NCBI GenBank assembly: GCA_903842755.1 | Contig: CAIMNF010000509.1 | Coordinates: 1 to 31,197, forward strand | Length of the DNA: 31,197 bases | Source of the DNA: Oligoflexia bacterium | GTDB lineage: Bacteria; Bdellovibrionota; UBA1018; CAIMNF01 | Direction: 5' to 3' | In this document: positions 1,205-30,032 of the stretch, piece by piece | Layout: each line of letters opens with the position of its first letter | Position numbering within the stretch: the first letter of the stretch is position 1 | The notes under the pieces: generated by a model | Told to the model about the DNA's origin: nothing | Seen by the model: the letters and a program-made list of their open reading frames with translations, nothing else | Databases searched by the model: none | Position numbers and translations under genes: made by a program

Positions 1205-2032
1205 TCACCTTTTCATCAATAACGTCGAAGAACGTGTTTGAGTTTGTGCATTGTAAAAAACGACTTCGTAATCGGTACGCGCGTTCAGTCCGCCCGTGTC
1301 TAATTGCAAACGATTATCAAACGTTCCTTCTGGCAATGCTTGTTGACTCACTCTTCTTCCATCAAGAGTGTAAAGTATGACCACACTTGATGAACCTGAA
1401 GTATTAATGAAATCATCGGGGAGCCTAAGCTCCGCCGTATTTCCAATTACGGGGTTAGGATAAACGGTTATTTTGGAAAGGGAGTTGCAACGGGGGCCGA
1501 TGCAGATGGGGCGAGAAAATACATACGCGTTATTATTGAATGCCGAATTCAGATCGACTTCTGCGACCGAATTCCGGTATTGCGGATAAAGAAAACTGAG
1601 GTAGTTCACAAATGACCAAAGGCAGTATTGACCCGAAGGGAGTGAGGAGGGGAGTGGAACATTCTCAATATAGGGAATGAAGATTGCCCCTGCGGCAAGT
1701 CCTGAGACATAATTGTTGGCTAGTAATTTCGCGTTAGAATCTAAAGGCGAGGGATTAAGGCGTGAGCTATTGCACCCAAAGCCCACCGGATAAGGAGAAA
1801 GAAACCAACCGACAAAAAAAGGAGTGGTGGCATCTCCAGAACCAATATTTTGAAACACATTTTGAGCAGTAATCGTCTGTTCAGAACTGAGCTGGTAAGC
1901 ATTGGCGGGCTGCGTGCTATTCGGAAGATTTGCAGAAGAGGATGCAAGGTCAGGAAGTGCCGCTAAGCAAAGAGAGTTTAATAATAAAAATACTCCGAGT
2001 TGTGCAGCAAAAGCGAGGAAATGTCTTTTCAC
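1205..2032 (-). CDS. Secreted CARDB/Ig-like domain protein with a C-terminal T9SS type-A sorting-like domain
   Basis: Signal-peptide-like N-terminus. PDL...QNIGSGDA..PFFVGWFLS...SGQYCLW...VAEVD..NN matches the CARDB pattern. The last ~88 aa contain ITVYPNP...LYTLDGRRV...LLMKR. Confidence 0.65.
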   Translation of the reverse strand: MKRHFLAFAAQLGVFLLLNSLCLAALPDLASSSANLPNSTQPANAYQLSSEQTITAQNVFQNIGSGDATTPFFVGWFLSPYPVGFGCNSSRLNPSPLDSNAKLLANNYVSGLAAGAIFIPYIENVPLPSSLPSGQYCLWSFVNYLSFLYPQYRNSVAEVDLNSAFNNNAYVFSRPICIGPRCNSLSKITVYPNPVIGNTAELRLPDDFINTSGSSSVVILYTLDGRRVSQQALPEGTFDNRLQLDTGGLNARTDYEVVFYNAQTQTRSSTLLMKR

Positions 2033-27083: not shown

Positions 27084-27128
27084 ATTTTTGTCCTCCTCGA
27101 ATGTATTCTATTAGAGGAGGACAAAAAT
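27084..27128. repeat. Perfect 15 bp inverted repeat with a 15 nt loop
   Basis: ATTTTTGTCCTCCTC (27084-27098) and GAGGAGGACAAAAAT (27114-27128). Confidence 0.9.
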
Positions 27129-27166
27129 TCGACAACTGAAGGGTCGACTTTTTCGGTAATAATAGC
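27124..27166 (+). repeat. Site L: AAAATTCGACA-N7-GGTCGACTTTTTCG...ATAATAGC
   Basis: Internally inverted half-sites around a 7 bp spacer (ACTGAAG). An inverted copy lies at 28465-28504. Confidence 0.8.
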
Positions 27167-27940: not shown

Positions 27941-28165
27941 CTAAACTGATTTGACTTGCTTTATTTTTAACTTTTTACAAAACTGATCAGGCGTCATCAT
28001 TTCAATGCCCGAAACCTTCTTGTGCTTCAAAAGCCCCTTATCCTCGCTCATGATGGCAAGAAACTGTCCTGTGATCCAAGCCTGAATGATCTTTTGCGGT
28101 GTCCCACCAGCAACGAGTGCACTGACTACAACGTTCGTATCAACGACTGCTCTTTTTAAGCTCAC
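27941..28165 (-). pseudogene. PIN-domain (VapC/PIN_3-like) toxin with a large in-frame internal deletion
   Basis: RAVVDTNVVVSAL...G.F.AIMS joins directly to EDKGLL....SGIEMMTP.QF, giving ~74 aa against the ~130-140 typical of the family. Confidence 0.75.
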
Positions 28166-28394
28166 GCCTGACGTTCTTTTGAATCTTGAGTGCATTACCC
28201 ATCGCAGCTTTTGCGGTCAGACCGGCTTTCTTGGCATCTGATTTAACTTCAGCTAAAATAGAGAGCGCATCTTTTTGTTCATGCGAAAAAGTCTGACACA
28301 TTTCCTGAACTCCACGCCGAATCAACTCAGCCATTGAAACGCTTTGGATAAAAGGGGCCGGTGGGAGTTGAGCCCACGTCCAAAAATGGTCCAT
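28140..28394 (-). pseudogene. RHH/CopG-type antitoxin, apparently 5'-disrupted
   Basis: VSMAELIRRGV matches RHH helix B, but the expected N-terminal strand and helix A are not recognisable. Its stop overlaps the PIN gene start. Confidence 0.55.
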
Positions 28395-28464
28395 CGCTAA
28401 ATTCTACATGCTTAGTAATCCATCCATTCAAAATACGTAAAAAGTTCAAGAGGATCAATGCAAT

Positions 28465-28504
28465 GCTATTATCGAAAAAGTCGACCTCTTAAATGTCGAA
28501 TTTT
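28465..28504 (-). repeat. Site R: inverted copy of site L with a different 7 bp spacer
   Basis: Plus strand reads GCTATTAT-CGAAAAAGTCGACC-TCTTAAA-TGTCGAATTTT. Confidence 0.8.
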
Positions 28505-28579
28505 CGAAAAGCTCAGATTGTTTCTGATCGCAGTTTTTTATTAATGAAAGATATCGTTGAAAAAAATAATGGCTGCAAC

Positions 28580-28600
28580 TTTTACGATGGGATCGTAAAA
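28580..28600. repeat. Perfect 9-3-9 palindrome
   Basis: TTTTACGAT-GGG-ATCGTAAAA. Confidence 0.85.
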
Positions 28601-28601
28601 G

Positions 28602-28730
28602 CGCCAAACTTCCACATTTCCTTTTTCGCTAAGTCGCACAAGCCGATCCGAGTAAGGTGTAGCGGTAGCTACTCCGCACGAGGTGAGGCGCAGTAAGACG
28701 ACGCGAAAAAGGAAATGTGGAAGTTTGGCG
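28602..28730. repeat. Perfect 28 bp inverted repeat enclosing 73 nt
   Basis: CGCCAAACTTCCACATTTCCTTTTTCGC (28602-28629) is the exact reverse complement of 28703-28730. Confidence 0.95.
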
Positions 28731-28772
28731 GTATCGACCAGAATCAAGTAATTTCGCTACTTTAACCCCCGT

Positions 28773-28793
28773 CTTGTCCTATTATAGGACAAG
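28773..28793. repeat. Perfect 9-3-9 palindrome
   Basis: CTTGTCCTA-TTA-TAGGACAAG, 25 bp past the integrase stop. Confidence 0.85.
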
Positions 28794-28817
28794 CTCGTGC
28801 GTTATTACAATAATTTT

Positions 28818-30032
28818 CTAGTCCCCCTTCTTAATTTTAAAGTCGATCATATTTACAATTTTTTCCATCACAGCAGAATCAGTAGGGATAAAACGAAGCG
28901 CTTCTGTTGCTCCGGCTTCTTCGATCCCTGCCATTCGAATATATCTTTGCATGGTTTTCATGTCTTTCCATCCAGCAATTTTCATTACTACTGTTGCAGG
29001 AATTCCCGCAGATATCAATTGCGTAGCGAAGCACGCCCGCAATGTATGAAAACGAATTGATGGAAGTTGATTTGATACGCAAAAGCCCCTTAAGAGCGCT
29101 GCTTGATTGCCCGATACCCACTCAGTGAAGTGGGGAAGTAAATAATCATCCGTATTTAAAGATTCAATTTTAAGTTCGTAAGTAAAAAACCAATATAATT
29201 CACTCGAAATGGGCACTGTCCGCCAGTATCCCGCCTTAGTGGGTCCAACACGTTTCAGACGTGAGTTCCAGTTTCTTCTGACTCTGATAAAGCCATAGCG
29301 TCGATTGTGGAAGGGGAGTTCATCTTGTTTCTTTGCATCATCTAAAGAAATCATTTCAACATCACCGCGCTTGAGTTCCAGCAACTCCCCGCTTCTACAA
29401 CCCGTGAAAACTGCGACGACCCAAATTGGGTACCAAGGATTTTCCTGTTCTTTCGCTTTCCGAAGGAGTGTGCGAATTTCTTCCAAATTTAATATTTCAG
29501 GTATTTTTTCAACCTTGTCACTTTCAAGCTCTACGCCCCGGACAGGGGTATCCAAAACTCCTTGAATGATTCTTTCCTCAATTCCCCAGTTGTAAATTAA
29601 ATTGATCACGCTTTTAAGGTTTTTAACGAATTGATGTCCTTTTCCTTCAAGTTTTGCCTTCGTGAGAATATCTCGACCATCCCCACGGTTGATTTCTGAA
29701 GCGGGTCTATCTAACCACGGAGCAGTGTATCTTTGCGCTCTTGCAGCATAGTCATTAATGGTAGTTCCTGAATAATGTCCAGCTGAGTAAAGTTCCTGAT
29801 GCCGTTGCCAGCGATTAATCACGTCTTTCCATTTAATGCCCGTTGATTCAAGAAGAAGTAGTTTTTCGCTAAGGTTACGAAAAAGCTTCTTTTCCTCGCT
29901 AATGGCAGCTTTTTCAGATTCAATTCCATTAATCCGTTTTTGTACACGAATAGAGCGGTCTTTTCGACTTCGTAGATCAACATAAACCTGCCAGAAGGTT
30001 TTGCCGTCTTTTTCGTACTTTGAAATTGCCAT
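28818..30032 (-). CDS. int: Tyrosine recombinase/integrase (three-domain type with an N-terminal arm-binding-like region)
   Basis: TGCRSGEL (Arg), TKAG (Lys), FHTLRACFAT (HxxR), AGWKD (Trp at the His/Trp position) and MQRY (Tyr). GAGGAG RBS. Confidence 0.95.
   Translation of the reverse strand: MAISKYEKDGKTFWQVYVDLRSRKDRSIRVQKRINGIESEKAAISEEKKLFRNLSEKLLLLESTGIKWKDVINRWQRHQELYSAGHYSGTTINDYAARAQRYTAPWLDRPASEINRGDGRDILTKAKLEGKGHQFVKNLKSVINLIYNWGIEERIIQGVLDTPVRGVELESDKVEKIPEILNLEEIRTLLRKAKEQENPWYPIWVVAVFTGCRSGELLELKRGDVEMISLDDAKKQDELPFHNRRYGFIRVRRNWNSRLKRVGPTKAGYWRTVPISSELYWFFTYELKIESLNTDDYLLPHFTEWVSGNQAALLRGFCVSNQLPSIRFHTLRACFATQLISAGIPATVVMKIAGWKDMKTMQRYIRMAGIEEAGATEALRFIPTDSAVMEKIVNMIDFKIKKGD

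Follow-up and report, generated by a model that had tools for sequence, protein, structure and literature searches.

The window analyzed here is the whole of contig C509 (31,197 bp), one of the 615 contigs of an Oligoflexia MAG. A tyrosine recombinase (Int), with generic Xer and integron-integrase similarity only, is encoded on the minus strand at 28818-30032, which makes the palindrome-rich tract at 28465-28793 the 3' flank of int. The features of this region, listed from int onward along the minus strand, are:

28818-30032, minus: tyrosine recombinase (Int), 404 aa (PF00589, 52.6 bits)
28773-28793, no strand: 10-1-10 palindrome between the int stop codon and the hairpin
28602-28730, minus (sense, the int strand): hairpin repeat copy of ~120 nt (inverted repeat, model R1, fold)
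28656-28676, minus: apex 21-mer CGGAGTAGCTACCGCTACACC, with a 5-bp tip stem GTAGC/GCTAC and the loop TACC
28579-28601, no strand: 10-3-10 palindrome adjoining the sense 3' end of the hairpin
28467-28504, no strand: site R, one arm of a 38-nt, 84% inverted repeat (partner arm 27124-27161)
28354-28417, minus: ssrA (tmRNA) 3' fragment, 64 nt (partial RF00023 match, 16.8 bits; identity to ssrA ends)
27941-28334, minus: vapB-like antitoxin ORF (probable start 28334) overlapping a PIN-like ORF (27941-28195), downstream of the ssrA fragment

Inverted Repeats in the 3' Flank of int

A perfect 28-bp inverted repeat had been reported in this flank by an earlier note on the same DNA, and its arms (28602-28629 and 28703-28730) were complementary at 28 of 28 positions, with 73 nt in between. 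Within the window this was the longest perfect inverted repeat with a loop of 150 nt or less; the longest in 30 shuffled versions were 10 to 13 bp. The hairpin starts 88 nt past the int stop codon, on the same strand, and comprises the outer 28-bp perfect stem, an imperfect inner stem inside it and a conserved apex. As described before, its loop carries GTAGCTAC near the centre and AGTAAG twice. Folding of 28340-28817 gave structures far better than shuffled sequence on both strands (z scores of -8.1 and -7.9). The proposed extension of the stem by GTCG/CGAC came down to a weak 5-bp pairing across asymmetric loops that overlaps the adjoining palindrome. A 68-aa minus-strand ORF across the hairpin (28541-28747) was dismissed as spurious. 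The bases just ahead of the hairpin (...ACCGCCA) resemble a vestigial tRNA-type 3' end, a resemblance too weak for use.

Both short palindromes beside the hairpin, originally called as 9-3-9, are real, each call having been one pair short. The palindrome at 28579-28601 lies outside the hairpin family and was missing from the flanks of other copies. The one at 28773-28793 is centered on the -10 hexamer of a promoter-like site (TTGTAA-18-TATAAT, 28810-28781, minus strand, 10 of 12 matches), which makes it a possible operator; the site could be an operator-controlled promoter directed away from int, across the hairpin. That none of these structures has terminator polarity was borne out, as neither strand of 28100-29000 has a terminator-like site. 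Intrinsic terminators consist of a G+C-rich stem-loop and a U tract behind it, a combination absent here, and the flanks of 56 copies of the family showed no consistent T run.

Site R also proved real, and each arm of the repeat to which it belongs has an internal 11-7-11 dyad that is recombinase-site-like. The two arms bracket 1.3 kb that hold a 122-aa ORF, the vapBC-like pair (the PIN-like ORF reaching 25.3 bits against PIN_3, below the cut-off, and weakly resembling TIGR00305) and the ssrA fragment. Judged from this arrangement, the bracketed segment may be invertible or a cassette.

An ssrA 3' Fragment Near the Hairpin

ARAGORN predicted neither a tRNA nor a tmRNA gene for the window, and no Rfam family matched it at the gathering threshold. 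At E ≤ 10, the region 28250-28900 gave one partial tmRNA match, outside the hairpin (16.8 versus 47 bits), and otherwise chance-level matches. An intact, unusual tmRNA at 28354-28770 was considered and rejected, as only the last ~64 nt align with tmRNAs of the genus. This fragment comprises the 3' strand of P2 (CUAAGCAUGUAG helix strand), T-arm and acceptor strand, with a degenerate acceptor end that reads GGCCCC TTTT in place of GGCTCCACCA. Its identity to the 3' end of ssrA is 84 to 90%, both in the genus and in its own genome (contig C496, positions 1-188), and its T-stem is closer to the genus consensus than is that of C496. The latter contig opens midway through ssrA and continues into an XRE-like ORF. 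Taken together, the window fragment and C496 resemble both junctions of one ssrA-integrated island that the assembly has broken up, and we infer that the fragment is a displaced att-type remnant of such an island, not closed in this assembly because its ends lie on different contigs. Synteny between the window flanks and the ssrA neighborhoods of relatives was absent, and otherwise did not extend beyond one host gene, so the limits of the island are not definable from empty sites. The order within the window is int, hairpin, 184 nt, ssrA 3' fragment, which places the hairpin in an att-proximal zone at the margin of the putative island.

The Hairpin Belongs to a Dispersed Repeat Family

To describe the family, a covariance model (R1; 121 positions, 36 pairs) was built from 11 copies. 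It matched the window at 28606-28726 on the minus strand across model positions 1-121 (97.2 bits, E of about 1e-21 to 1e-23); the window copy is itself one of the 11 sequences behind the model, and the exact apex 21-mer is common to independent copies too. Only this one R1 copy was found in the genome of the window. The apex 21-mer occurs exactly in Oligoflexia, Desulfuromonadales and MFD02832 bin MAGs. Four records contained it: a MAG of the same genus (G003), where a 77% identical hairpin stands immediately behind tRNA-Arg; the 1.27-Mb MAG OY970170 (G405), in three places; a Desulfuromonadales MAG; and a high-GC coding region, where the match was taken as chance. Gene neighbors of the exact-apex copies were ordinary (ychF, hypD/hypE and, nearby, dnaK), and further diverged copies were present in G405 and the Desulfuromonadales genome. 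The tip stem varies by compensating substitution, for example from GTAGC/GCTAC to GTACT/AGTAC. Scans with the apex 20-mer returned no match among viral contigs and four in metagenomes, one of them apparently a true copy; the other metagenome matches lay in coding sequence and were set aside as chance, as was the match at L027. Literature searches on the apex sequence and on Gracilibacteria repeats yielded nothing relevant. On these sequence comparisons, the window's inverted repeat forms the outer stem of a lone member of an uncatalogued, non-coding, dispersed family of hairpin repeats, ~120 nt long.

Among 59 aligned copies, 88.6% of the paired cells were complementary, versus 65.7% in shuffles and 33 to 47% in slid controls. 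Covariation was found at 33 of the 36 stem pairs with 533 double changes in these copies, a level equaled by none of 500 shuffles. The apex (GTA-S...S-TAC) was nearly invariant, and three of its pairs (G-C, U-A and A-U) were constant throughout the 59 copies. Strand preference was marked: the sense strand carries 90 A.C mismatches versus 38 G.U pairs, and in 52 of 56 copies the more stable fold was that of the antisense strand (mean difference, 9.2 kcal/mol). The antisense strand was likewise the better folder in all 12 Oligoflexia copies. For the consensus, predicted energies were -32.5 kcal/mol antisense and -19.4 kcal/mol sense. The strand that is necessarily transcribed in some contexts, such as within rplU-rpmA, is thus the poorer folder, which counts against simple selection on a 3'-UTR RNA; the strand data are compatible with either an antisense RNA or a structure at the DNA level. 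Differences between orthologous copies in the outer stem were paired, and in one copy the inner arms matched a paralogue in the same genome, not the orthologue, together suggesting copying between arms or between copies.

A motif resembling TGGGAAG(T) was seen in the first 10 to 20 nt past the hairpin in many copies of G405 and its relative G407 (L073, L070 and others). It also resembles part of the 3' arm of the window hairpin, so the family unit may exceed the hairpin that was modeled.

Most Copies in the Genus Abut tRNA Genes, and Related Hairpins Follow ssrA

Five of the 17 genomes of the window's own genus carried R1 copies, one to five each. Besides that of the window there were 11, of which nine start 0 to 4 nt past a co-oriented tRNA gene (Glu, Val three times, Met, Gln twice, Leu and Arg), and the outer stem of the hairpin pairs with the terminal ACCA of the tRNA. 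At seven of these nine, the last 11 to 26 nt of the tRNA (T-loop to CCA) recur as a direct repeat 19 to 170 nt past the hairpin, and in three of the tRNA-end units an inverted copy of the T-arm and acceptor follows the hairpin immediately. The tails of the tRNA-Arg and tRNA-Met units are homologous. No clean empty site was found for the tRNA-Gln locus.

At ssrA of another genus member, G002 (L018, G002:C1, 1567-2700), we observed a tandem array with three copies of the ssrA 3' end. After each copy, at a distance of 1 to 2 nt, stands a hairpin with arms that match those of the family but with a weak R1 score (18 to 26 bits), and the order along the array is hairpin, inverted T-arm copy, conserved tail, next 3'-end copy. 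The first hairpin of the array has 26-bp perfect arms of different sequence. A similar unit, present singly, was seen in G016. The succession of hairpin, tail and gene-3'-end copy is common to the window and the tRNA units of sister genomes, but in the window it is int, in place of a tRNA, that lies upstream, at 88 nt.

Gracilibacteria Copies Are Inserted DNA at Stop Codons

Outside the genus, the family was carried by 12 of 41 relatives of G405 (Candidatus Gracilibacteria/Peribacteria), at 1 to 65 copies per ~1 Mb; one family-bearing MAG is labeled Eubacteriales. Five genomes of ~1 Mb had R1 counts of 16, 10, 12, 65 and 10, and the other carriers one or two, while an even sample of 150 genomes from the same phylum had no copy at E ≤ 1e-12. 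All genomes compared, here and in the genus, are MAGs.

With Gracilibacteria ORFs read in genetic code 25, 33 of 56 copies had the stop codon of an upstream, co-oriented ORF between -10 and +15 nt from the element start, a lower bound as the flanks are short, compared with 6 of 56 on the opposite side; in 27 copies the stop fell within -6 to +3 nt. Two Gracilibacteria flanks reading 'ggtacgc...' were examined as tRNA ends and rejected as such. At one locus, G405 carries a copy that G407 lacks: the flanks are 176 nt apart in G405 and 27 nt apart in G407. Three genomes have the element in the rplU-rpmA spacer, beginning at the stop codon, and at least eight have none there. The element is therefore inserted DNA, as filled and empty orthologous sites coexist. 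Insertion into an existing terminator hairpin at rplU-rpmA was rejected, since genomes without the element lack any hairpin at that site. Comparison of filled with empty sites revealed no target duplication, though one of 4 nt or less would escape it, and no Gracilibacteria copy showed a repeat of its upstream 45 nt above the shuffled control. One copy (1522-1644, minus strand) sits in frame under code 25 inside murB (L192, G421:C58, 1009-2052, plus strand), between the FAD-binding and C-terminal domains.

The Hairpin Does Not Accompany the Integrase

The three closest Int homologues (62 to 65% aa identity) have no hairpin downstream; in its place stand an unrelated short palindrome and another gene. 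For the homologues in G003 and G008 (L063 3300-3360 and L065 1265-1310), we noted that this short palindrome, GGCACTCA ... TGAGTGCC, is conserved and is followed by a conserved gene. Conversely, none of the other 11 genus copies has an Int homologue within 1.5 kb. The family is moreover scattered through other genomes, at up to 65 copies per ~1 Mb. Absence beside close Int homologues and dispersal as a repeat are outcomes that the earlier note had itself named as refuting its proposal. Its specific suggestions of a sib-like retroregulator, a single-strand origin or an Int-specific att hairpin as the defining role are consequently unsupported. What survives of the broader idea, a folded single-stranded DNA, att site or structured RNA, is a constrained folding element with massive covariation in an att-proximal zone; the Int-specific role does not.

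Neither did the family follow a candidate mobilizing enzyme. By genome, Y1 (IS200/RAYT) genes and the element occurred together in 6, the element alone in 6, Y1 alone in 10 and neither in 19, with no association between them. Element-only genomes include G405 (16 copies) and G407 (10), and no Y1 gene was present in G000, G405 or G406. A DEDD IS110 transposase was found in none of the element-bearing genomes searched and only in G431. This relative of G405 (1.5 Mb) has 29 IS200-like Y1 genes, three IS110 genes and no hairpin copy.

Discussion

Weighing these data, we lean, by a modest degree above even, toward the hairpin being a member of a selfish mobile DNA family that settles at the 3' ends of genes and has no dedicated role for this integrase. 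The family would settle exactly at the gene 3' boundary, co-oriented with the gene, and would move horizontally; the last bases of the gene are drawn into the outer stem of the hairpin. The window copy would have arrived within, or inserted into, a tRNA/tmRNA-end module, and would not be needed by this integrase. Complementarity of the arms is probably kept at the DNA level by copying between arms or copies, not by selection on a co-transcribed RNA, and locally the window copy would do no more to the int transcript than any large hairpin in its 3'-UTR. Several findings pull against a selfish family. No mobilizing enzyme emerged among the Y1 and IS110 families profiled. Insertion without target duplication in Gracilibacteria and with 11- to 26-nt repeats in Oligoflexia is not obviously covered by one mechanism. 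Orientation, abutment to gene ends, conserved internal loops and the apex would equally fit a functional RNA or a component of a recombination site. The window copy is also atypical, lying 88 nt past the int stop where others lie 0 to 6 nt past a gene end, and beside a tyrosine recombinase and an att-type fragment.

That setting suits a different view, which we hold to be possible if unlikely: the hairpin would be a working part of an integrative module targeting tRNA and tmRNA genes, an arm adjoining the core att site (in the order hairpin, tail, core). A tyrosine integrase might use it as a structural or accessory-binding element, or an island might provide it as the insulator or 3'-end hairpin of the tRNA or tmRNA gene being rebuilt. 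The int-less tRNA units would then be miniature derivatives moved in trans and the window the int-bearing form, making its copy the informative one. The nine of 11 genus copies that abut tRNA 3' ends, seven of them with the T-loop-to-CCA repeat that is the classical signature of tRNA att sites, agree with such a module, as do the homologous tails of two units at different tRNAs, the ssrA tandem array of G002 (hairpin, inverted T-arm copy, tail, 3'-end repeat), the order of int, hairpin, 184 nt and ssrA 3' fragment in the window, and the island-like continuation of the ssrA-bearing C496 into an XRE-like ORF. It sits poorly, however, with the three closest Int homologues lacking the hairpin, with the other copies having no Int nearby, and with the Gracilibacteria copies, which follow protein genes (rplU, ychF and others) and show no detectable target repeat. 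A single unit family would, in addition, require a separate core for each tRNA, and the ssrA fragment is only 84 to 90% identical to the genome's own ssrA.

Also doubtful, to a similar extent, is the idea of a mobile hairpin, shared across phyla, that homes precisely on the 3' boundary of genes by an undescribed route and copies the last bases of the gene, inverted, into its outer stem. In Gracilibacteria that boundary would be the stop codon, in Oligoflexia the CCA end of a tRNA or tmRNA gene, and homing would involve neither a transposase of the profiled types nor a classical target duplication. The route might be, for example, a hairpin-primed insertion, or insertion by a recombinase acting on the folded strand, aimed at gene ends. 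If so, the int-bearing window copy could hint at the enzyme.

A functional structured RNA appears improbable to us. It might act within the 3'-UTR or between cistrons, read with the upstream gene (as a stabilizer, for instance, or to display the conserved pyrimidine loop UUUCCUC), or as an antisense small RNA with the purine-rich internal loop as its functional fold. The very strong covariation and conserved apex speak for such an RNA, as do the strict orientation to the upstream gene, with the start at the stop codon or CCA end, and the location inside the rplU-rpmA operon, where the sense strand must be transcribed. The better antisense consensus fold, with G.U pairs where the sense strand has A.C, also speaks for it. 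Against an RNA of either kind, copy number ranges from 0 to 65 among close relatives, most of which lack the element; its presence is polymorphic by insertion; one copy lies in frame within murB; the co-transcribed strand is the one that folds worse; and no Rfam family matches. Finally, although a 28-bp perfect duplex on the int strand, 88 nt past the int stop, would suit RNase III, we give very little credence to a lambda-sib-like retroregulatory stem that controls int by integration state, since the hairpin is not conserved with Int, stands elsewhere behind tRNA and housekeeping genes, and sits between int and the att-type fragment, a position in which integration would leave it joined to int, unlike sib.

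A selfish family at gene ends finds partial parallels among known repeats. Like REP/BIME and the REPINs mobilized by RAYT, it consists of non-coding extragenic palindromes in many copies just behind genes, with complementary arms and a GTAG/GTAC-type motif at the apex. Unlike REP, it is about three to five times longer, and unlike REP and REPIN it is most conserved at the apex and least at the ends, with an identical 21-mer in several phyla; no association with Y1/RAYT genes, the partners of REPINs, was seen. The Rickettsia palindromic elements (RPE) and Coxiella MITEs (PMC5896051) are palindromic repeats of ~100 to 150 bp in small genomes, tolerated beside genes and occasionally inside them, a habit shared by the in-frame murB copy. 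Most hairpin copies, however, abut a stop codon and are not in frame; the family is not known to be related to these elements in sequence, and the hosts differ (Gracilibacteria, Oligoflexia).

Size, hairpin potential, patchy copy number and insertion polymorphism are shared with classical MITEs such as Correia/NEMIS and ERIC. MITEs carry target duplications, whereas none was detected for the Gracilibacteria copies, and the repeats of 11 to 26 nt at Oligoflexia tRNA ends lie 19 to 170 nt past the hairpin, an un-MITE-like position. Variable termini around a conserved center are the reverse of terminal inverted repeats recognized by a transposase, and no autonomous partner was found among the Y1 and IS110 genes profiled. 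Integron attC sites (e.g., the Vibrio VCRs) offer another likeness, namely an imperfect hairpin of ~120 nt at a co-oriented stop codon whose non-coding strand folds better, with a tyrosine recombinase beside the window copy. Yet the hairpin ends lack the RYYYAAC/GTTRRRY core boxes and the outer stems are variable; the family stands next to housekeeping genes with no attI or cassette array; and empty sites lack the hairpin alone, their flanking genes remaining. The genus hairpins also resemble parts of tRNA/tmRNA islands and their int-less, CIME-like remnants in lying within short inserts bounded by tRNA 3'-end repeats, in the tandem units at ssrA and, for the window, in the combination of int with an ssrA 3' fragment. 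They differ from islands in that the units are about 250 to 300 bp, that one type of unit occurs at many tRNAs, and that in another phylum the hairpin spreads by itself, behind protein genes.

For the window, the result removes a tempting wrong annotation, that of an Int-specific att hairpin or a sib-like regulator; its att-type landmark is instead the ssrA 3' fragment, 184 nt from the hairpin. The family is unusual among bacterial palindromic repeats in combining an identical 21-nt apex across phyla, arms that change together and a start pinned to gene ends, and it reaches about 65 copies in a 1-Mb candidate-phyla genome. Such elements confuse the prediction of gene ends, terminators and sRNAs in Gracilibacteria, which use genetic code 25. 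They are also marks of horizontal exchange linking ultra-small bacteria with predatory lineages of the Oligoflexia type, and may point to an undescribed form of gene-end targeting.
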